In this document: positions 1,098 to 10,380 of the stretch, piece by piece
Layout: each line of letters opens with the position of its first letter
How positions within the stretch are numbered: position 1 is the stretch's first letter
Assembly (NCBI GenBank): GCA_015522685.1
Contig: WALU01000028.1
Coordinates: 1-20,539, forward strand
Source of the DNA: Thermoproteota archaeon
GTDB lineage: Archaea > Korarchaeota > Korarchaeia > Korarchaeales > Korarchaeaceae
Length of the DNA stretch: 20,539 nucleotides
Direction: 5' to 3'
Made by a program: the position numbers and the translations under genes
The notes under the pieces: generated by a model
Told to the model about the DNA's origin: nothing
The model's database searches: none
Seen by the model: the letters and a program-made list of their open reading frames with translations, nothing else

Positions 1098-1619
1098 TCA
1101 GAATTCTATTCCTTCTCTAGCTGAGATTCCTCTCAGGAATGGATGCTTTACCTCTCTGAACTCCGTGATATAATCTGCCAAGTCGTAGAAGGAGCTAGGG
1201 GCATATCTACCGGTGAGCACGACCTCTGTAGATGGATTCCTGTCCTTCACGGCCTTTATGACCTCCTCCTCTGATAGGAGGTTAAATGAGATGGCTACGT
1301 TAACCTCGTCAAGTACCACTAATCTATATCTCCCCGAGGACATCCCTTCCTTAGCAGCGCTTAATCCCATCCTAGCCATCTCAAAATCCCCAGATGTTGG
1401 TTTCTTTGGATTAACAAACTTTTCAGAGCCGAATCTCATGATTTCTATTTCCGGTATCTTCCTGACGGCCATTACCTCACCTGTGGGGGTACCCTTCAGA
1501 AACTGCACTATGAGGACTCTTCCCCCGTGCCCTGCCATCCTTAGGGCAAGGCCAAATGCTGCAGAGGTTTTTCCTTTTCCATTTCCCGTGTAAAGGTGAA
1601 CTAATCCTTTCATTTTCAT
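1098..1619 (-). CDS. cobO: ATP:cob(I)alamin adenosyltransferase, CobA/CobO/BtuR type
   Basis: HLYTGNGKGKTSAAFG short P-loop, QFLKG, LVVLDE, VLTGR and KHPF..G motifs. Probable ATG at 1619 overlaps the nrdJ stop (TAATG). Confidence 0.93.
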   Translation of the reverse strand: MKMKGLVHLYTGNGKGKTSAAFGLALRMAGHGGRVLIVQFLKGTPTGEVMAVRKIPEIEIMRFGSEKFVNPKKPTSGDFEMARMGLSAAKEGMSSGRYRLVVLDEVNVAISFNLLSEEEVIKAVKDRNPSTEVVLTGRYAPSSFYDLADYITEFREVKHPFLRGISAREGIEF

Positions 1620-4600
1620 TAGGACACCACACATGCAGACCAGCCGCAGTCAAGGCATGTAACGCAATTCTCTTTGTACACTAGTCTGGTGCTTCCACAT
1701 TCAGGGCATCTCTCTATGTGGTTCGTTACTTGAGTAGTGGTTGGAGGCTTGAAAACTGGCTGAGCAGGAGCTTTCTTCTCCTCCGACGGCGATGCCTTTT
1801 TCATTTGAGGCCTTTTTATACCCAGCATGTCCATGATCTTCAGAGTTTGATTCTCGGTCTTAACAATGTATTCGCCCTTTCTCTGTGAAGGTGTTATGAG
1901 AACCTGAGCTGCCTTTGATCCATCTCTGTAAACGGTTATGCCCTTCATGCCCAACTTATATGAGAATAGATATGCCTTCTCCACATCTCCGACTGAAACC
2001 CAGTTGGGCATGTTTATTGTTTTACTTACGGCAGCGCAGATCCATTTCGTTATCTCAGCCTGAGCCCTGACGTGATCCCACCAAGGTATATCATAAGCTA
2101 CCAAGAAGGCTTCTTGTAACCTCTTAAATACATCCTCCTTGCCTTTAGGTGCCTTCAATCCCTGCAGGGAACCTCCATTGTCCGATATTTCCTTGAGTAG
2201 TTTCTCATTGTATAGACCGTTCTCCTTCAGCTGCCTCTCGAGCTCCCTATCGACGTAGAAGAATGACCCAACAGTCACTCTCTTCTCATACACCAAGGCG
2301 AATTGAGGTTCTATTCCTGAGGAGACATCAGCAATCATGGATATGGATCCAGTTGGTGCGATGGTCGTTACTTCAGCATTTCTTATTCCATATTTCATTA
2401 TCTCATCCTTCAGCTCATCCCAGTTTAGATGCCACCATTCTGGATGGTAGAATCCTTCTATTGGCATCTCTCCTTTCATATAGCCTGAATTGGAGTAAAT
2501 AGAAGAGACTCCTCTCTCTTTAGCCCTCTCCACACTTTCTTTCATCGCATGATATGTCAAGTACTCTGCGGCCTTCCTCATAAAGTCGAAGCCTTCCTCG
2601 CTATTATAGGGAATACCTAAAGCGAAGAGGACATCAGCTAATCCCATCATTCCCAAACCCACTTTCCTGCTAGCCTTCGTATGCTTCTCTATCTCAAGTA
2701 TTGGGAATTTGTTCACATCTATTACATTGTCAAGGAAGCGGAGAGCCAGTCTCGCATCCTTGGCGAGAGCATCCCAGTCAAAGGCTGCTACTCCATTCTC
2801 CCTCTTTATATAGGCATAAAGGTTAATACTTCCTAGATTGCAGGATTCATAAGGATACAAAGGCTCCTCTCCGCAGTTGTGATTGCTTATTCCATTTCCT
2901 ATGTAGTTGTGGTACTTGGGAACTGCGAAATCATAGAAATCGATCACTCCAGCATCTTCGACGGCTTGTACTGTAGCCCATACTTGATCTCTCTTCGTCT
3001 TCTTTAGAGGGAGCTTCTCCAGCTTTTCTATGCTCTCAAAACCTATTAGGTCCTTGAATATCTTCCTGCTATATCCCTTAACTATCAGTTCATAGTGGCC
3101 AGAGGCTTCGTACACTCTCTCCTCTCCACTAACAGTCGTATAGCGAAACTCCGCCCCATACGGCCTGTCATAGATCACTGAGTAAATTCCAAGAGTGGTT
3201 AGGAGAATCTGCACATCCTTCAGGAGATCGATGCTTGAGCTGGTGAGCCTGATCGCCTTATCATTGTCCACGTATCCATCTGCTGTGAAGAGTCCTCTCA
3301 GAAATGCTACCAATGAGCGAGGACTTAGCCTCCAAGCCAAGTCGGGCAGCCTCCTTTCCCTATTCCTCTCCATTAAGGAGCCCATAAATTCCATCACATT
3401 CCTGTAAACGGTTGTACTCCTGTTGTACTGGATTTTGTGCTCGCTCTCACTGAGAACATATGTATGAGATAGTGGATTCCCTCCAAGCTTCTCAACTCCC
3501 CTTCTCATCCTTTCCTCCGCTGCTTTATCCTCGTTACTGAAGAACCAAGCCACATAGTGCTTATTAAACATCCCATTACCTATTAGCCATCCTAGAGCGA
3601 AAGCAACGTCCTCATCCAAGTCCAAGCTTCCCTCGTAGGCCTCGCTCAAGAACCAAGGGTGAAGCCTAGCTATGTAGATCTTGTCGCCTTCTCTCAGATC
3701 CTTAGCTTCCTTCCATCCATTGGGGGTGAGGAGCTTGTGCTCGTAGGTTACTTTTAGCTCATACCCTTCCTTAGTGATGATCCTAAGACCTGGTTTCCTT
3801 CCGATGTGCCACACCCAAGCCTTAATCCTCTTAGGTACAGATAACCTGAGTTCGTCCCCATGTATAGTTCTGTAGATCACCTCGTCTCCTTCTACGATCA
3901 CTAAATCAGTTTCATAGGCTTGAGGCTCACCTCCTTCGCCAAGAGAGTCCTCATCCACAGTCACAGCCTTCACTGGTCCAGAGAGTTTAGCTCTGTGGTA
4001 TATCTCCTCAGCGTGCATCCAACCATTTGGGGTCATTATCATAGTGTCCCCAGAGATGCATGGATTGGTTGACTTTATTTCGCCTAAATAATCTTTTAGT
4101 ATATTTCTTCTATTAATATTATCCGCAAAGAGCACCCCAGGATCGCCAGTACGCCATGCCAGTTCGGCTATCTTCCTGAAGAATTCCTTAGGGTTCAAAG
4201 TATCCCAAACTTCACCATTCCTGGGATTCACTAGAGGGTAGGGCTCTTCACTATCAAAGTGAGACCAGAAATCTCCAGTTACCATGACCGACAGATTGAA
4301 ATTCTCGAATTGTCCTGGCTTTAATTTAGCTTCCACGAATTTCCATATATCGGGGTGCCATACCTCAAGTATTCCCATATTCGCTCCTCTACGCTTACCT
4401 CCTTGCTTGACCACATCGGTTATCACATCTATGATCCGCATGAAGCTGACTGGGCCAGATGCTTGCCCACCTGTGGAGCTAACCATATCTCCCTGAGGCC
4501 TAAGCTTGGAGTAGTTTATTCCAACGCCTCCTCCCGACTTGAATATTATTGCTGCATCGGTTGCAGCTTTCATTATTGATTCCAAGCTATCTTCTATATC

Positions 4601-5455
4601 TAAGACGAAGCATGCTGAGAGTTGCCCGAGCTTGGCTCCAGCATTGAACAGAGTTGGGGAGTTAGGAATGAACCTTAAATCGACCATCAGCCTGTAATAG
4701 TTGAGGAAATCCTTATAATGATGATCAAACTCTCCACTAAGCAGCATATTCCAAAATTGGGACCAGCTGATCTTCATCTTTCCCTGCTCATTCAGCTCAT
4801 CGTAGAGAGTCTTCATTCTCTCCAGATGATAATGATTCCAAGTAAAGAGAGGAACTAGGTGATCTTCTGGGTGGCCATTCTTCAGACTTATCCTTCCCTC
4901 CCATTCCTTGAGTGAGAAATCCTCTCTAGGATGAACCTGCTGATTACCATTCTTGTCGAATATCTTAGGATCATAGAGGATATCAGGTATAACCACCAAT
5001 GCAGCTACCCTTATGAACATCCCCTTGGGATCCTCTTTTAGCTTTCCTTCTTGGTCTTTCTGTAAGTATCTAGCTGCTAGCAGCCTTATTGCATTCAATG
5101 AGAGTCTCTTATCTACGTCATCTACATAATCTTTACCTAGAAGGGCTATTTTCTCCTTCCTTATCTTCTCCCTCTCCTTCCTGTAGAGTATGTAAACCTT
5201 CGCAACGCCAAACAGATCATATTTCATCAAGGCTAGCTCCACAATATCCTGAATCTCCTCTACATGAGGGGGTTTCTCATCAGTAAATGTTTTATTTATC
5301 ACTCTAAGGACATATTTAACTATCTTATCCAAAGTAGCCTCATCATATTGTCCTACTTCAAGCATAGCCTTTTCTATTGCCCTTCTAATGCGTGAGGCAT
5401 CAAATGAGACAATCCTCCCATCCCTCTTGACTACCTTGCTAATAGACATTCCCAT
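1619..5455 (-). CDS. nrdJ: Adenosylcobalamin-dependent (class II) ribonucleotide reductase with N-terminal ATP cone, intein and C-terminal Cys4 zinc ribbon
   Basis: ATP cone VVKRDGR..FD; PNSPTLFNAG; QLSACFV; GGGVG; QGGKRRGANM; TNP/CGE; ESCNLGSINL; TIAPTGSIS; KTINMP; KGITVYRDGS; C-terminal CPECG...CxxCxxCGWSAC. No R2 gene in the window and an adjacent adenosyltransferase. Start is ATG 5455 or 5449 (TTG 5458 in the ORF track). Confidence 0.95.
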   Translation of the reverse strand: MGMSISKVVKRDGRIVSFDASRIRRAIEKAMLEVGQYDEATLDKIVKYVLRVINKTFTDEKPPHVEEIQDIVELALMKYDLFGVAKVYILYRKEREKIRKEKIALLGKDYVDDVDKRLSLNAIRLLAARYLQKDQEGKLKEDPKGMFIRVAALVVIPDILYDPKIFDKNGNQQVHPREDFSLKEWEGRISLKNGHPEDHLVPLFTWNHYHLERMKTLYDELNEQGKMKISWSQFWNMLLSGEFDHHYKDFLNYYRLMVDLRFIPNSPTLFNAGAKLGQLSACFVLDIEDSLESIMKAATDAAIIFKSGGGVGINYSKLRPQGDMVSSTGGQASGPVSFMRIIDVITDVVKQGGKRRGANMGILEVWHPDIWKFVEAKLKPGQFENFNLSVMVTGDFWSHFDSEEPYPLVNPRNGEVWDTLNPKEFFRKIAELAWRTGDPGVLFADNINRRNILKDYLGEIKSTNPCISGDTMIMTPNGWMHAEEIYHRAKLSGPVKAVTVDEDSLGEGGEPQAYETDLVIVEGDEVIYRTIHGDELRLSVPKRIKAWVWHIGRKPGLRIITKEGYELKVTYEHKLLTPNGWKEAKDLREGDKIYIARLHPWFLSEAYEGSLDLDEDVAFALGWLIGNGMFNKHYVAWFFSNEDKAAEERMRRGVEKLGGNPLSHTYVLSESEHKIQYNRSTTVYRNVMEFMGSLMERNRERRLPDLAWRLSPRSLVAFLRGLFTADGYVDNDKAIRLTSSSIDLLKDVQILLTTLGIYSVIYDRPYGAEFRYTTVSGEERVYEASGHYELIVKGYSRKIFKDLIGFESIEKLEKLPLKKTKRDQVWATVQAVEDAGVIDFYDFAVPKYHNYIGNGISNHNCGEEPLYPYESCNLGSINLYAYIKRENGVAAFDWDALAKDARLALRFLDNVIDVNKFPILEIEKHTKASRKVGLGMMGLADVLFALGIPYNSEEGFDFMRKAAEYLTYHAMKESVERAKERGVSSIYSNSGYMKGEMPIEGFYHPEWWHLNWDELKDEIMKYGIRNAEVTTIAPTGSISMIADVSSGIEPQFALVYEKRVTVGSFFYVDRELERQLKENGLYNEKLLKEISDNGGSLQGLKAPKGKEDVFKRLQEAFLVAYDIPWWDHVRAQAEITKWICAAVSKTINMPNWVSVGDVEKAYLFSYKLGMKGITVYRDGSKAAQVLITPSQRKGEYIVKTENQTLKIMDMLGIKRPQMKKASPSEEKKAPAQPVFKPPTTTQVTNHIERCPECGSTRLVYKENCVTCLDCGWSACVVS
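2876..4060 (-). mobile_element. Intein (395 aa) with DOD/LAGLIDADG homing endonuclease domain, inserted in nrdJ between TNP and CGE
   Basis: Starts CISGDT (block A). Block B is VTYEHKL (TxxH). LAGLIDADG-like motifs ALGWLIGNG and FLRGLFTADG. Block F is YDFAVP and it ends SNHN followed by Cys+1. Length 1185 nt, in frame. Confidence 0.95.
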
Positions 5456-5672
5456 CAATTTAATTAGGAAGAGAGACTCTATAAGTTAGTTAGGGTTTAT
5501 TTCCAGTCTATTATGATTCATCTTTATATATTTTATATGTAATTATGTCAGTAATTGCAAAATAATTTAAGAAAAGGTACAACAAAAAATGGATTAACTA
5601 AGCGTTACATTAGTATTTTAGACGGGGCGCTTAATAAAATAAACGTTCCACGGATGCCTCGATCTCCTTTAG

Positions 5673-6221
5673 TTAGTTCTCATTAATCATAGTTTCCAGC
5701 CTCTTTGGTAGAGTTACACCCTTCTGGCCTTGGTATACGCCTGAATATGGCTTCTCAACCTTTCCTTCCACTCTAAAGAAGACTACATGAAGGAATCTAA
5801 TTCCTCTATAAAGTCTTACTGGAGCTGGCCTTGTCCACATAACCTCTATGGTGAGCTGGCCCTCGAAGCCGCTATCTACTAGGGTAGGTGGAGCTATGAA
5901 TCCCCATCTAGCTATAGAACTCCTCAGTCCGCATAGAGCAGCTACATCTTTGGGTATTTTGACATATTCTTCTGTAACTAGCAGGACACTAGTATTTCCA
6001 GGTATGGTTACGCCCCCATCTGGTATCTCCCTTATAGAAAAGTGCTTAGCTGGATCATCTCTTATTGGGTCTATTACCTCGCCTTGAACCACAGGAAATG
6101 CTATTTCAGGTCCTATCCTCATATCAACCCCATTTTCTCTTATCGAATCATTATACAAGGGTTCTATCCTAAGATCTCCAGAGATTATTAGGGAGCGAAT
6201 AGCGCTGTCTGATAATATCAT
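5673..6221 (-). CDS. dcd: dCTP deaminase
   Basis: MILSD..I start, ENGVDMRIG, LRSSIARWG, VDSGFEGQLTIE and C-terminal YSGVYQGQKGVT; trimeric dUTPase-fold family. Confidence 0.92.
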   Translation of the reverse strand: MILSDSAIRSLIISGDLRIEPLYNDSIRENGVDMRIGPEIAFPVVQGEVIDPIRDDPAKHFSIREIPDGGVTIPGNTSVLLVTEEYVKIPKDVAALCGLRSSIARWGFIAPPTLVDSGFEGQLTIEVMWTRPAPVRLYRGIRFLHVVFFRVEGKVEKPYSGVYQGQKGVTLPKRLETMINEN

Positions 6222-6279: not shown

Positions 6280-7317
6280 TTAGATCAATTTTTTGACCTT
6301 CATCAGCTCAGCTAGGAGGATAGCCTGACCAGCAGCTCCTCTGATTGTATTATGACCCACTGCAACGAAGAGAAGAGATCTTGAATCTAAACCTCTCCTT
6401 AACCTGCCCACAGTAACGCTCATGCCTCCTCCAGCATTCCTGTCATACCTAGGTTGAGGTCTGTCTTTCTCTTCTCTTAAGTATATAGGCCTTCTAGGCG
6501 CGGTTGGCAGATTCAGCCTCTGTGGTTCTGAGCTGAATTCTCTAAGAAGTTTCATAGCATCATTCACATCTACTTCCTCCTCAAATTCTGCATGTATAGC
6601 CACTAGGTGGGCATCTAAAACAGGAACTCTTACACATGTAGCTTGGACATCAAAGTCTGACATTTTTATTTCATTCCCCTCGATTATGCCTAATAGTTTC
6701 CTTGTCTCGTTTCGAACCTTCTTCTCCTCTCCTTCTATGTATGGTACCACATTATCCACAATATCATAGGAGGGGACGCCTGGATATCCAGCGCCTGAGA
6801 GAGCTTGATAGCTAGCAATGTTCAGCCTCCTTAGAGTATAAGCATCATGAAGAGGCTTGAGGGGTAGTACCAGCACGGTGGTTGTGCAGTTAGGATCTGC
6901 GGCCATTGGACCTATACTAAGATCCTTTTGCTTATTTATTAGAGCTAGATGATCTGGATTAACTTCAGGAATCACCAGTGGAACCAAGGGATCCATCCTA
7001 AGTGCGCTAGTATTACTCACTAGGGGTATTCCTTGATGCATTAGCTCCCTCTCAAAGCTCCTAGCTTCCCTTGATGGGAGGGCTGAAAAAACCAAGTCAA
7101 CGTTCCTCAGATTCTTTAAGGAGTTTTCCACAACCCTTAGCTCCCTAGCCTCCTTGGGAACCTCACCTTCTAGTATCCATTTAACTGCTTCTCCATACCT
7201 CTTGCCCACACTCGCCTTCCCAGTTATCACAGCTAGCTCAAACCATGGGTGACTGGACAATATCTGGACGAATCGCTGCCCAACCGCTCCAGTTCCACCT
7301 AACAGGGCCACCTCCAT
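6280..7317 (-). CDS. asd: Aspartate-semialdehyde dehydrogenase (archaeal type)
   Basis: GGTGAVGQ nucleotide-binding motif, VPLVIPEVN, catalytic PNCTT, QALSGAGYPG, CVRVPV and HNTIRGAAG. Confidence 0.95.
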   Translation of the reverse strand: MEVALLGGTGAVGQRFVQILSSHPWFELAVITGKASVGKRYGEAVKWILEGEVPKEARELRVVENSLKNLRNVDLVFSALPSREARSFERELMHQGIPLVSNTSALRMDPLVPLVIPEVNPDHLALINKQKDLSIGPMAADPNCTTTVLVLPLKPLHDAYTLRRLNIASYQALSGAGYPGVPSYDIVDNVVPYIEGEEKKVRNETRKLLGIIEGNEIKMSDFDVQATCVRVPVLDAHLVAIHAEFEEEVDVNDAMKLLREFSSEPQRLNLPTAPRRPIYLREEKDRPQPRYDRNAGGGMSVTVGRLRRGLDSRSLLFVAVGHNTIRGAAGQAILLAELMKVKKLI

Positions 7318-7321
7318 TTGC

Positions 7322-8488
7322 TCACCCTAAAGCAATCTTAAGCTCCTCAGCTGCTTTCTCTCTTTGCGGCCAATCAACGAAGATAGCTATTTTATTATGG
7401 ACTGTTTGAAGACCCAATATATTTATGCCTATGGTTGCCAGAGGTTCAGCTATCTTGTGAATTACGCCTGGAGTTTCCTCTATTGCAGCTCCCCATATTC
7501 TTATCATAGCTAAATTCTCCTTAATAGTTACTGCCTTAGCCAATCCCTTCTTGACCATAGAGTGAAGCATCCTTGTGGTCTCGTTAGCATCACCATCTAG
7601 GTACATTATCGTAGCTCTGCCCAAGGTACTTATAGAGAGCACTCCATCTAGTTGGTTTGTATTCACTTTATGGCCATTAGTGAGGATAGTAATCATGCTT
7701 AAGGGTCTCCTATGAACCTCGATATGTAGATCTGGAATATGTCCATGCACAATTGTCCCCCCTCGGGTGAAAGTACCTTCCTCTGCTGATACTATTCTCA
7801 TCTTGATCGTAGGTGTTAAGTAATGAAGAGCCTTATGATGTAGAATCTTAGCTCCTCCTAAGGACATCATAAGGGCTTCCTGGGCATCAAGATCCTCAAG
7901 CTGAATTACATTCTTCACGATCTTAGGATCAGCGCTCATCATGTTTGAATCCTTAACAAGCACCACCTCATCCATATTGAGGCACCTCGCCAAGGTAACA
8001 GCGGTCGTATCGCTTCCACCCCTGCCCAAGGTAGTTAGCCTACCATCAGGGGTTTTTCCTACATAGCCGCAGATTACAGGTACTACTTTCTTCATGAGAG
8101 GTTCTATATTAGATATAACTGCCCCGCAGGTCCTTGGAAGGTCAGGATCAGCATCGCCAAACCTATCATTTGTGAATATGGGCCAGTTTGGGGAGCTAGG
8201 GTCTATAGCTATAGAGGGAACTCCTTCTGAATTTAGGGCTGCGGCCATTAGCCTAGCTGAGAGTACTTCTCCTATCCCAGCTATGGAGTCTAGAAGAGAA
8301 TCCTTCGCCTCAACTAGCTTGGCCATTTCAATGAGCCTGTCTGTATAACTTTTCATGGCTGAGACAACGAGTAGCATTTCATTGCCACTACTGAATTCCT
8401 TCTTAGCTATTTTTGCCATTTTCTTGAAGTCTATTGGATCATTTAAGATTGAACCTCCAAGCTTGACCGCTATCCTCTTTCCCACCAA
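7322..8488 (-). CDS. lysC: Aspartate kinase with C-terminal ACT region
   Basis: VKLGGS, VVSAM, GEVLSAR, TTLGRGGSDTTA, ADPKIV, GAKILH motifs; ACT motif PGVIHKIAEPLATIGINI. Ends 4 nt before the asd start. Confidence 0.92.
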   Translation of the reverse strand: MVGKRIAVKLGGSILNDPIDFKKMAKIAKKEFSSGNEMLLVVSAMKSYTDRLIEMAKLVEAKDSLLDSIAGIGEVLSARLMAAALNSEGVPSIAIDPSSPNWPIFTNDRFGDADPDLPRTCGAVISNIEPLMKKVVPVICGYVGKTPDGRLTTLGRGGSDTTAVTLARCLNMDEVVLVKDSNMMSADPKIVKNVIQLEDLDAQEALMMSLGGAKILHHKALHYLTPTIKMRIVSAEEGTFTRGGTIVHGHIPDLHIEVHRRPLSMITILTNGHKVNTNQLDGVLSISTLGRATIMYLDGDANETTRMLHSMVKKGLAKAVTIKENLAMIRIWGAAIEETPGVIHKIAEPLATIGINILGLQTVHNKIAIFVDWPQREKAAEELKIALG

Positions 8489-8871
8489 GCCACCCCCTTT
8501 AGGGCTTCAGCTACAGTCTTTCCAGCTAATGTAAGTCTTATTGGATTGCCATCACCGAATTCCACAAGTTTTAGTCTCCTTAGATCTCTCAATGCAAACC
8601 AGAAGGAAGATAAGGGTATATTAAACTCTTCCTTAGCTACTTTCGCCATGGAACTGGCTGAAATCTTTCCATTGAAGCGGAGGGTTAATGAAAGAACAGC
8701 CTTCTGCCTGTGCGTTAACTTAAACAACCCAAATAAAACTAGAGATTCCTTTAAGGAGGTATCAACTATAGATATTGGCGGGACATCGCCTTTAACTCCC
8801 ATTGGCAAGACATCGCCTGAAATTGGTTGGACATCACCACAACCTCCCGTTAGCTGGGTTAATACTGCCAT
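8470..8871 (-). CDS. Winged-helix DNA-binding protein, putative regulator of lysC-asd (start uncertain)
   Basis: C-terminal ~85 aa reads as wHTH: LTHRQKAVL...SASSMAKVAKEEFNIPLSSFWFALRDLRRLKLVEF...IRLTLAGK. Its 3' end overlaps the lysC start. Possible starts are ATG 8871, ATG 8803 or a later TTG. Confidence 0.65.
   Translation of the reverse strand: MAVLTQLTGGCGDVQPISGDVLPMGVKGDVPPISIVDTSLKESLVLFGLFKLTHRQKAVLSLTLRFNGKISASSMAKVAKEEFNIPLSSFWFALRDLRRLKLVEFGDGNPIRLTLAGKTVAEALKGVAWWERG
8766..8834 (-). CDS. Putative 22-aa upstream ORF / leader peptide MSNQFQAMSCQWELKAMSRQYL
   Basis: SD GGAGGT followed by in-frame GTG GTG ATG; stop TAG at 8766-8768. It lies in a different frame from the wHTH ORF. 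Confidence 0.35.
   Translation of the reverse strand: MSNQFQAMSCQWELKAMSRQYL
8774..8838 (-). repeat. Three direct 17-nt repeats, consensus GGYGATGTCYHRCCAAT (minus strand)
   Basis: Plus-strand copies at 8774-8790 attggcgggacatcgcc, 8801-8817 attggcaagacatcgcc and 8822-8838 attggttggacatcacc. Confidence 0.9.
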
Positions 8872-8873
8872 AA

Positions 8874-8886
8874 TTAAAAAGTTAAC
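8874..8886 (-). promoter_or_regulatory. Candidate TATA box (CTTTTTAAT) for the wHTH-lysC-asd unit
   Basis: T/A box about 25 nt upstream of the GGGAGGT leader, flanked by two similar GGCAGT(AT)TAAC motifs. Confidence 0.4.
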
Positions 8887-8971
8887 TGCCCAACCAACAG
8901 TCAAAGTCTCACTAATTAAGTTGAACTACGAACCACCTTTGATATATCTGATCTCTTTCGCTTATTTCATT

Positions 8972-8998
8972 AGAAAAAATTGGGGGAGATTGCCTCCC
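8972..8998 (-). terminator. Possible hairpin plus T-tract terminator
   Basis: Minus strand GGGAG-GCAAT-CTCCC followed by CCAATTTTTTCT. Confidence 0.3.
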
Positions 8999-9570
8999 AT
9001 GAATGGAATATTTCATTCAGTGGATCTCTCATATTCGGAAGATATATAGATCTGATAGGTAGCTTAGGAAGCTAGTATCCTTGGATAGTTAGTATTTAGC
9101 TTTAGCCCAAGTAATTAATTATTACTTTATCTCCTCACAAATCATAAATTTCGATGGTGTGATGTAGCTGAGTATTAAAACTATCAAGTCGACCTCAGAT
9201 ACAGTGAGAGCATTTTTGCACCTATCTCGCGATTCGATGTTGATTGGAGGTTTGATCTATCACCTGATGATCTTAGGGAGAGATAGTTGAGTTTCTTCGC
9301 CTCCATAGTGGCAATAACTACCAGGTTCATATCGATTTGACCAGCTTTAGAGGGCATATATAGTAAATCACTAAGAAGACGGATTTGCTCTATCGCTCAG
9401 AACTCAGGAATAAGGATATATAAGAGGGAGGTGAGAACCCCCCCTCACTCCTACTTAGCTCCAAAATCTCACGCTCGAAAATGCTAAAGATTTCCTTGCA
9501 TAAAGATGTGGGTGATTATATATCTCATTAAGAAGTCTCTTTGAAGAAAGGTAGGATAGTAGGGTGAAAA

Positions 9571-10380
9571 ATGAAAATGAGTGAAGAAAAAATATTCTTT
9601 GAAGTTTCAAGTAAAGGACTAACAATAATAAATGATGATTTTCTTGCAATCACTCTCATACCAGAAAATTCGATTGATCTAATAGTTACTTCACCACCAT
9701 ATAATGTAGATATCCACTATAACTCTTTCAAAGATAATATTTCATATGGAAAATATCTTGGATTCACAAGAGAATGGCTTACTAAGGCTTTAAAATTGAT
9801 AAAACCAGATGGCAGAATGTGTCTGAATATTCCTCTTGATAAAAGTAAAGGAAGGACGGAAGCAGGCTTTCAGAGTGTTTATGTCGATATAGTAAAAATT
9901 GCAAAAGAAGTTGGTTGGAAATACTTCTCAACAATTATATGGCATGAAGGAAATATCTCTAGAAGAACAGCGTGGGGCTCTTGGCTTAGTGCCAAAGCAC
10001 CCTATATAATAGCGCCAGTTGAGATGATCGTCGTTTTTTATAAAAAAAGATGGTCAAAATTAGAGAATGGTATATCGGGCATTACTAAAGGAGAATTTAT
10101 GGAGTGGACTAATGGTGTCTGGGTTTTCTCCGGAGAAAGTAGGAAAAAAGTCGGACATCCAGCACCCTTTCCAGTAGAGCTTCCGAAAAGATGTATCAAA
10201 CTTTTTAGCTTTGTTGGAGATACCGTTCTTGATCCTTTTTTAGGGAGTGGTACAACACTCGTAGCTTGTGCGCTGTTAGATAGGAGAGGTATTGGAGTTG
10301 AAATAGATAGAAAATATTGTGATATTGCTAAAAGGAGAATTATAAAAGAAGGTAACATATTTCAATCGAAATTGTTATAG
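9571..10380 (+). CDS. Beta-class N4-cytosine/N6-adenine DNA methyltransferase (probably m4C)
   Basis: Motif IV TSPPY lies N-terminal and motif I DPFLGSGTT C-terminal (beta order); HPAPFP and NISRRTAWGSWLSA signatures; SD GGGTGA upstream. Confidence 0.92.
   Translation: MKMSEEKIFFEVSSKGLTIINDDFLAITLIPENSIDLIVTSPPYNVDIHYNSFKDNISYGKYLGFTREWLTKALKLIKPDGRMCLNIPLDKSKGRTEAGFQSVYVDIVKIAKEVGWKYFSTIIWHEGNISRRTAWGSWLSAKAPYIIAPVEMIVVFYKKRWSKLENGISGITKGEFMEWTNGVWVFSGESRKKVGHPAPFPVELPKRCIKLFSFVGDTVLDPFLGSGTTLVACALLDRRGIGVEIDRKYCDIAKRRIIKEGNIFQSKLL

Follow-up and report, generated by a model that had tools for sequence, protein, structure and literature searches.

A leader reading frame with Phe, Trp and Tyr codons ahead of a divergent Tar-family regulator and lysC-asd in a korarchaeal genome: a candidate ribosome-read sensor of aromatic amino-acid supply

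The locus and its leader reading frame

Contig WALU01000028.1 of the assembly GCA_015522685.1, from an archaeon of the Korarchaeaceae, carries on its minus strand a gene for a small winged-helix (wHTH) regulator, followed by lysC-like and asd genes for an aspartate kinase and aspartate-semialdehyde dehydrogenase. The whole stretch that was analysed, 20,539 nt, is referred to here as the window, and the three copies of a 17-mer that lie at the start of the regulator gene are referred to as the units of a cassette. The initial annotation of this DNA, made from the sequence alone, had placed the repeats in the leader of a wHTH-lysC-asd unit and had proposed an undescribed archaeal cis-regulatory element; the leader position is borne out, and the appearance of the element agrees with the proposal; no Rfam family was matched apart from two chance-level hits to lncRNA (long non-coding RNA) families (E 3.5 and 5). 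The repeats are the units of a short open reading frame (ORF) that overlaps the regulator gene out of frame and in which each unit brings a Gln codon followed by a Phe, Trp or Tyr codon, and we consider it fairly probable that this leader ORF acts as a sensor, read by the ribosome, of the supply of Phe-, Trp- and Tyr-tRNA.

The repeat GGYGATGTCYHRCCAAT occurs three times in the window, on the minus strand only (8838-8822, 8817-8801 and 8790-8774), at start-to-start distances of 21 and 27 nt; 0.05 matches are expected by chance, and three or more were found in none of 100 shuffles of the window. A scan of the window's own genome for the 17-mer, allowing up to three mismatches, returned this locus and otherwise two single weak sites, and the two-copy pattern is found in 16 of 20 genus members, at a single locus in each, and in none of the 22 other genomes of the phylum set. 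Read from the ATG at 8834, the leader ORF crosses all three units in 22 codons down to 8766, with the product MSNQFQAMSCQWELKAMSRQYL. Its frame is +1 relative to the regulator, whose own frame (-1 relative to the leader ORF) reads GDVxPIS through the units. Each unit is built of (GUG)AUG, two codons, C-CAA and an aromatic codon, the last being UUU, UGG and UAU in window order. The opposite strand also holds an ORF (8546-9049), but this frame is not discriminating: in 22 of 22 relatives two or more antisense frames run open across the array.

Upstream of the leader ORF, a TATA-like box is followed at about 25 nt by the Shine-Dalgarno (SD) sequence GGGAGGT, and a GTTAACTTTTTAAAT-like sequence about 45 nt upstream of repeat 1 is kept in the genus; the putative promoter function leans on the archaeal TATA consensus and on the mapped RNA 5' end of a relative (L109, below). 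Since the 3' end of the 16S rRNA was not found in the assembly, the use of SD sequences was measured on ORFs instead: 89 long ORFs contain GGAGG, and in 47 of them it precedes the first ATG by 7-10 nt. The coordinates of all features are collected in Table 1.

Table 1. Coordinates of the leader, regulator and operon features in the window
Feature	Position	Strand	Basis and remarks
Promoter, GTTAAC then TATA-like box TTTTTAATTA	8871..8886	-	Resembles archaeal BRE/TATA; function putative
Predicted transcription start, ~8847	8845..8850	-	TATA-to-5'-end distance of relative L109 transferred to TTTAATTA (8878-8871)
Shine-Dalgarno GGGAGGT of leader ORF	8842..8848	-	GGAGG 8 nt before ATG 8834; kept in genus
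Leader ORF (uORF)	8766..8840	-	GTG 8840, GTG 8837, ATG 8834, stop TAG 8768-8766; (VV)MSNQFQAMSCQWELKAMSRQYL
Unit 1, F-type GGTGATGTCCAACCAAT	8822..8838	-	Gln CAA 8825-8823, Phe TTT 8822-8820
Unit 2, W-type GGCGATGTCTTGCCAAT	8801..8817	-	Gln CAA 8804-8802, Trp TGG 8801-8799; overlaps regulator-frame ATG 8802-8800
Unit 3, Y-type GGCGATGTCCCGCCAAT	8774..8790	-	Gln CAA 8777-8775, Tyr TAT 8774-8772; leader stop one codon on
ACCTCCT, SD-complementary	8754..8760	-	Within regulator codons 14-16; pairing without comparative support
Divergent Tar-family winged-helix regulator gene	8470..8802	-	110 aa from ATG 8802 (start putative); profile-profile match
Aspartate kinase (lysC-like)	7322..8488	-	Pfam AA_kinase 7.2e-38 and ACT domain; 19-nt overlap with regulator gene end
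Aspartate-semialdehyde dehydrogenase (asd)	6280..7317	-	Pfam Semialdhyde_dh 4.4e-31, Semialdhyde_dhC 1.3e-38

Three further genes were noted nearby. A dCTP deaminase-like gene lies at 5673-6221 (-), and an ORF of 1279 aa at 1619-5458 (-) reads, from its translation, like a ribonucleotide reductase with an intein-like insert (...NPCISGDT... to ...SNHNCGEE...). A gene for an N6/N4 DNA methylase (Pfam N6_N4_Mtase, 1.9e-46) is found at 9571-10380 (+), divergent and about 700 nt upstream of the leader promoter.

Conservation of the cassette and transcription in a relative

Within the genus the comparison covered 40 loci with 22 distinct upstream sequences, from genomes as well as from metagenome contigs and contigs of metagenome-assembled genomes (MAGs). 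The small regulator ORF was found in 18 of the 20 other genus genomes, the two misses being about 70% complete. Each of the 22 distinct sequences has between two and four copies of the unit, adding up to 56, and in each the copies follow a conserved TATA-like box and SD; this excludes a strain-specific slippage duplication. Unit columns G1, G4, A5, G7, C9 and C13-T17 are invariant, while position 8 is T, C or G. The AUG of unit 1 is kept throughout (22/22), and the leader ORF is present in every relative (for instance MSRQFQVMSRQYR and MARQFQVKPRQWGVVMPRQYR), so that the pattern differs from one in which only a GDVxP peptide is conserved, a possibility raised in the initial annotation: start codon and Gln-aromatic codons are kept in the +1 frame. 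The spacing between units is always a multiple of three, namely 21, 24, 27 or 30 nt in the genus and 15, 18, 30, 33, 36 or 78 nt elsewhere, whereas indels of 1-2 nt do occur directly before unit 1. In the clade with two repeats a TGA closes the regulator frame just before unit 1, with no start after it. In this clade and in most relatives with three repeats the leader stop overlaps the regulator AUG as CGATGA; the window lacks such an AUGA stop/start overlap, having CTATAGTTG with no AUG there.

Outside the genus, where loci were counted without paralogous second hits, the cassette precedes genes of the Tar family at 24 of 30 loci. In three sister genera (other Korarchaeia) it is present at 12 of 12 loci, with leader products such as MRQFQRLMSRQYHL, MPRQYRWTGARPAS, MSRQYR, MDRQYLFWA and MNRQYCFWR, and a change from ATG to GTG between two sister loci keeps the start function. 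The model of NCBIfam TK0271_fam, run over 401 genomes, gave matches above the family cut-off in eight genomes, all from one family, which we call Thermococcales-type; the cassette is found at all eight of these loci (for instance MPRQFTQSKVMPRQWVMPCQYL and MSRQFMKSSNQVMSRQWVMPRQY). Four loci of three further archaeal families also carry it. The SD-led AUG or GUG is always in the +1 frame, in the genus, the sister genera and the other families alike. At two loci of family f70 (L130 and L131) the regulator is preceded by a pair of distinct small ORFs, all of which contain Gln-Phe; in one of these ORFs the Gln codon is CAG and one has many Phe codons (MLYQFKSFCFF), the first ORF of L130 is separated from the regulator frame by a stop, and the AUGA overlap is also seen in L131.

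Taken over all lineages, the 93 units (62 distinct) have an invariant C-CAA-T, and the codon after CAA is always TTT, TTC, TGG, TAT or TAC. TTT interchanges with TTC and TAT with TAC, while codons for Leu, Ser and Cys never stand at the sensor position; the order of units is Phe, Trp, Tyr everywhere except at two loci of genus g5, and the leader stop follows the Tyr codon within 0-2 codons at most loci. As a control we asked for CCAA alone in the 130 nt upstream of 50 loci, with two short-flank loci left out. Of 115 occurrences, 97 were in phase with the regulator frame, and an aromatic codon followed in 92 of these 97 as against 0 of the 18 that were out of phase.

Which of the two overlapping frames is under selection appears to change along the unit. 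Upstream of CAA the leader frame looks selected, judging from leader codon 2, whose third base takes all four letters (C51, T3, G4 and A4 of 62 distinct units). At the sensor position, F-type units have only U or C after UU in 21 of 21 distinct units, and the regulator-frame codon there varies (Y, R, C, W, S, P). After the AUG of W-type units and the AUA of Y-type units it is the regulator frame that looks selected: AUG is followed by Gly in 13 of the 14 distinct W-type units, written with three synonymous codons, and AUA by Ser in 25 of the 27 distinct Y-type units, written with all four UCN codons, while the overlapping leader codon is Q, L, P, R, H, C or a stop. Two bases that are silent in the leader frame, C13 and the final A of CAA (never CAG), are nevertheless invariant in all 62 distinct units, and CGC, which usually stands ahead of CAA, accounts for 2% of the Arg codons in the window's own genome. 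AUC was never seen at the AUN position of the 93 units. At 11 of 50 loci, from seven groups, the regulator frame holds no ATG, GTG or TTG between the upstream stop and the domain.

The same comparison bears on the hairpins that the initial annotation had drawn around the repeats. They can be folded, at -3.2, -5.8 and -6.9 kcal/mol at 37 C for copies 1, 2 and 3, and the complementary GGGAGGT (8848-8842) and ACCTCCT (8760-8754), which on that proposal could close a multi-branch fold over the SD, are present and paired in the minimum-energy fold. The U-A versus C-G difference between stems, described as compensatory, is there in the literal sense, but it amounts to two separate one-sided changes, the usual pair among the 56 genus copies being U.G. 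Across these copies 96.8% of the cells of the stem GGYG/CGCC are paired, yet a two-sided change is found at no pair, and 280 of 500 shuffles reach the covariation score (0.112). For the SD/anti-SD helix the paired fraction is 79.9% of cells, compared with 59-70.5% in slid controls; its measures are equalled by 166 of 500 shuffles and show no covariation. RNAalifold recovers only the invariant mini-stems, and the leader as a whole folds no better than its shuffles (z = -0.33; 72 of 200 fold equally well). All four stem pairs are standard in 42 of the 62 distinct units, and in genera g3 and g5 the 5' arm has changed while the 3' arm is still CGCC, so that the stem is broken without compensation. 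Box C/D small RNAs (GUGAUG as C box with CUGA downstream) were also considered and dropped, as window copies have GCGAUG and CUGA is missing.

RNA data exist for one of the Thermococcales-type loci, L109, to which we mapped four runs (X21-X24) from two studies. RNA 5' ends gather at 1870/1871 (6 + 7 in X21 and 9 in X22, with adapter-joined ends in X21-X23), 31 nt past the initial T of TTTAAATA and 11 nt upstream of the leader AUG. Read depth over the leader was 13-30, 14-30, 14-22 and 5-50 in X21-X24, against 3-12, 3-9, 0 and 1-6 over the gene body, an excess of 2.5- to more than 10-fold that 5'-biased libraries could inflate. Depth on the opposite strand did not exceed 3.2, and in X24 3' ends lie inside the leader ORF at 1823, 1827 and 1841. 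Taken together, the 5' ends before the leader AUG and the leader excess indicate that the repeats of L109 are transcribed as a 5' leader and that short leader RNAs appear to accumulate. Neither insertions nor deletions reached 10% of the L109 reads, a negative result for transcriptional slippage or editing.

Two details of this locus were noted in passing. A GUG in the regulator frame at 1869-1867 (-), at the second base of the transcript, is open to the Tar domain and may provide a leaderless start; it is not kept at the other loci of the family, where L106 has TGA at that place. About 15-25 nt past the leader stop, L106-L109 share a GGCGGGG (regulator Gly-Gly codons) that is complementary to the CCCCGCC or CCCTGCC of the units, and the read depth of L109 falls at this site (bin 1765-1785), possibly through a lineage-specific structure, which is absent in the window.

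The regulator and the pathway behind it

The first well-supported start of the regulator, ATG 8802-8800, lies inside unit 2. No Pfam family was found for the protein, and against NCBIfam TK0271_fam (NF053753) it reaches 13.5 bits (E 0.062), short of the curated cut-off of 130; that model matches 0 of 21 genus genomes at E 1e-8 and finds nothing in the window's own genome at E 1. Homology to the Tar family is found all the same: hhalign aligns the genus with 21 Tar-family domains at 97.4% probability (E 1.6e-11, 61 columns), homologues from the sister genera match the family model at 1e-18 to 1e-27, and a search with a sister-genus domain retrieves the window's regulator at 1.7e-6. In sequence searches of the PDB the genus profile gave one weak match, 2qvo_A (E 0.027), and the Tar profile none. 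The sequence of the recognition helix is not the same (STLKLN versus SSFWFA). Database relatives of the regulator are annotated from MGVEGD.. or from later ATGs.

The Tar paper gives TGGACA-N8-TGTCCA as the DNA site of Tar and reports that no amino-acid effector was found (PMC6737238). In Tar target promoters this palindrome stands immediately upstream of the BRE/TATA. With up to two mismatches, this box is present at 10 of 12 sister-genera loci and in none of the 22 genus upstream regions, and Tar boxes are not enriched in the window's own genome (23 sites with up to two mismatches, 45-57 in shuffles). A perfect palindrome, GTACGAA-N-TTCGTAC, stands about 20-40 nt upstream of the TATA box in the 3-repeat clade of the genus (L003, L004, L009 and L016), at the place taken by the Tar box in the sister genera; it is not kept in the window's own clade and may be a new operator of the diverged regulator. 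At several loci of two sister genera and one other family (L020/L076, L021/L078, L081 and L115) the Tar-family domain forms a fusion with the N-terminal transketolase subunit, in open frames of 314-395 aa.

The genes that follow the Tar-family gene differ between lineages. They encode transketolase in the Thermococcales-type genomes, f89, g2 and g5, DAHP (3-deoxy-D-arabino-heptulosonate 7-phosphate) synthase and chorismate mutase in f121, and the lysC-asd pair in the window. DHQS-II (PF01959) belongs to the archaeal aromatic route that starts from aspartate semialdehyde. It is encoded in 21 of 21 genomes of the window's genus, as against 0 of 15 of the sister genera, while DAHP synthase shows the opposite distribution, with 0 of 21 against 5 of 15, where it adjoins tar-tkt. 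A DAHP synthase gene lies just downstream of the Tar-family gene in G021, G024, G041 and G046. Chorismate synthase is present in the window's own genome; transketolase was not found in it (92% complete). Since the DHQS-II route starts from aspartate semialdehyde, lysC-asd would be a precursor-supply operon here. The genes behind the cassette thus appear always to supply precursors of the shikimate pathway, in the window putatively aspartate semialdehyde, which points to a role for lysC-asd in making aromatic amino acids in this Korarchaeum-like genus. The initial annotation had taken the controlled pathway to be that of Lys, Thr and Met; aromatic amino-acid synthesis is the more likely one. 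A second paralogue of aspartate kinase lies elsewhere in the genome (G000:C5:13146-14956, minus strand; 28% identity, E 1.1e-24), directly downstream of homoserine dehydrogenase; it could serve Thr and Met, which suggests separate kinases for the Thr/Met and the aromatic branches. An orthologous lysC was not found at E 1e-20 in four of the five sister-genera genomes searched.

A ribosome-read sensor, its alternatives and known systems

The anatomy of the sequence, its conservation across phyla, the relation of the frames and the pathway context are established, as are, at L109, the 5' end of the RNA and the excess of leader over gene body. On these we base the reading that we favour as fairly probable, in which the leader ORF reports on the supply of aromatic aminoacyl-tRNAs. 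Ribosomes would start at the SD-led AUG 8834 and end at the UAG at 8768-8766, and waiting at any of UUU, UGG or UAU would alter the output of both the regulator and the operon that follows. Pausing at any one of three codons would yield the OR logic that has been reported for Tar-controlled operons. The output step could take one of three forms: (a) termination followed by reinitiation into the regulator frame at the leader stop, where part of the genus has AUGA; (b) shielding of the RNA by a stalled ribosome from premature termination or decay; or (c) a -1 shift at the waiting codon. With respect to (b), archaeal factor-dependent termination has been proposed to need an uncoupling of translation (PMC13681488).

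Several points weigh against the sensor reading. We infer that the leader ORF is translated and that pausing does the sensing, and likewise how the output comes about, and the transcription start in the window is a predicted one. The cassette is missing at six of the 30 Tar-family loci outside the genus (L024, L124, L125, L132, L133 and L129), and the last of these, in genome G123, has an exact Tar box together with a leader ORF whose unit reads TGC-CAA-CAC, that is, Gln-His; its neighbour genes offer no Pfam clue to the His codon. Each amino acid is represented by one sensed codon, where bacterial attenuators have runs. Neither a terminator/antiterminator pair nor a covarying structure was found. 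A ribosome stalled at the Trp or Tyr codon would cover or adjoin the regulator start, and such simple occlusion would lower the amount of regulator under starvation, the opposite of what an activator requires. The genus also appears, from the upstream regions described above, to have lost the Tar box, so that the targets of its regulator may differ from those of Tar. To these comes the possible 5' bias of the L109 libraries, and the counts overstate independence, as the genomes are kin, most are MAGs, and the loci were located via the regulator.

One could also speculate that output form (c) is the essence of the cassette, each copy being a starvation-triggered site of -1 recoding, with regulator and operon made only when any aromatic amino acid is short. 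The ribosome waiting at the aromatic codon would slip back one base on C-CAA and continue as CCA-AUN... in the regulator frame, helped by the SD-like GGUGAU 8 nt upstream, a distance longer than the 4-6 nt optimum of the genome. Recoding would explain why C13 and CAA are invariant, why the AUG is always in the +1 frame, why at 11 of 50 loci the regulator frame lacks a start codon, and why selection on that frame begins right after AUN. However, all 62 distinct units have C-CAA-UNN at the junction, which does not conform to the slippery heptamer X XXY YYZ, tRNA-Gln would re-pair at only two of three positions after slipping by -1, and the combination of a short ORF with a start and a long -1-frame ORF without one is confined to those 11 loci, the window differing in that ATG 8802 is available. 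We know of no trans-frame product for the cassette loci. According to a 2016 review, no natural trans-frame protein that is specific to starvation and arises from hungry codons is known (PMC5009743). On balance, we regard recoding as unlikely.

The units could alternatively be cassettes for the start of translation only, without any sensing, the Phe/Trp/Tyr pattern being a by-product of keeping AUN and avoiding stops. Every unit does offer the SD-like GGUGAU together with a regulator-frame AUU, AUG or AUA, all 93 units have CCA|AUN in the phase of the regulator frame, the synonymous codons of the conserved Gly and Ser imply that this frame is read from there on, and chance is not negligible, since 5 of the 13 sense codons with first base U are aromatic. 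An independent SD-led start of the regulator looks weak, though: the GGUGA of the unit lies 10 nt before AUN, a spacing seen in one of 105 GGTGA-led starts in the window's own genome, where the peak is at 4-6 nt. AUC, moreover, never occurs, the SD-led AUG or GUG is always in the other frame, and the F-type units keep U or C after UU despite an unconserved regulator codon. This makes the start-only explanation distinctly unlikely in our view.

That the repeats encode a peptide repeat (GDVxPIS) at the N-terminus of the regulator, with the +1 ORF being incidental, we hold to be improbable. The regulator frame is open through the array at all loci, in the window up to TTG 8904, and some database entries are annotated with such N-termini; set against this are the TGA directly before unit 1 in the 2-repeat clade, the loci without ATG, GTG or TTG, and the residue before Pro-Pro, which varies freely (P, L, Q, S, T, R, V). 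The upstream ATG of the window, at 8871, lies inside the TATA box, and the RNA of L109 starts 11 nt before the +1-frame AUG.

The initial annotation had also offered the repeats as DNA operators for the wHTH protein; on such a reading this protein or another factor would bind them and block RNA polymerase just past the start site. The regulator adjoins direct repeats that each have a weak dyad (GGYG-N6-CGCC), the motif occurs at this locus alone in the genome, and with its Tar box lost the genus regulator must bind something else. In sister genera and Thermococcales-type genomes, however, loci with the motif have a Tar box as well, at a place of its own ahead of the TATA box, the motif is kept although the recognition helix differs, its spacings of 15 to 78 nt break helical phase and keep the reading frame, and the dyad is reduced to three of four pairs in 50 of 56 copies, all of which makes operators very improbable. 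The least probable explanation is the one that the initial annotation had put first, a structured RNA of three AUG-loop hairpins, closed by the SD/anti-SD helix and binding a protein or metabolite, since the folds described above, present as they are in the minimum-energy structure, lack compensatory changes, score no better than shuffles, depart from standard pairing in 20 of 62 distinct units and would depend on stems of 3-4 bp in organisms of presumably hot habitats.

Full-text searches of the papers available to us, supplements excepted, found no description of such an element, and a term search of a 2021 review on archaeal recoding gave no occurrence of aromatic, Thermococc or leader peptide. 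As far as we have searched, ribosome-read leader control of amino-acid operons has apparently not been described before in archaea. The finding adds a conserved small ORF that is unannotated and suggests that many Tar-family genes may carry doubtful annotated starts, and a leader ORF with one Phe, one Trp and one Tyr codon before tar can be tested directly in a genetically tractable Thermococcus.

In bacterial leader-peptide attenuators (trpL, pheL, hisL and thrL) a short SD-led leader ORF contains codons for the amino acid of the pathway, and the speed of the ribosome is the presumed signal. The window resembles them in having an SD-led short leader ORF with codons for the regulated amino acids, and L109 appears to add a short leader RNA. 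Unlike them, the window has one codon per amino acid and three amino acids in three copies of a cassette, its leader ORF overlaps the start of a transcription-factor gene out of frame, terminator and antiterminator hairpins were not found in it, and its host is an archaeon. Recoding at prfB (+1), dnaX (-1) and antizyme (+1) likewise joins a short ORF bearing the start to a long ORF in another frame, startless here at the 11 loci mentioned, with extreme nucleotide conservation at the junction and an SD-like element upstream; the cassette differs in that C-CAA-UNN is no classical slippery heptamer and that an AUG is available to the long frame in the window as in many of its relatives. For TnaC the signal is free tryptophan, sensed by way of a long nascent peptide, whereas the units of the window are 5-7 codons long. 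Nevertheless, as in Rho-dependent control of the tna operon by TnaC and in FttA termination, a ribosome halted near the end of the leader ORF could shield the RNA, the FttA link being an analogy (PMC13681488). A further comparison is with Tar/TK0271 itself. The Tar paper makes no mention of a leader ORF, attenuation, an upstream ORF or an untranslated region (PMC6737238). The regulator of the window falls below the family cut-off, has another recognition helix and no Tar box, and is followed by lysC-asd instead of transketolase; like Tar, of which it is a remote homologue, it stands first in an operon that putatively feeds the shikimate pathway, behind the same leader cassette.

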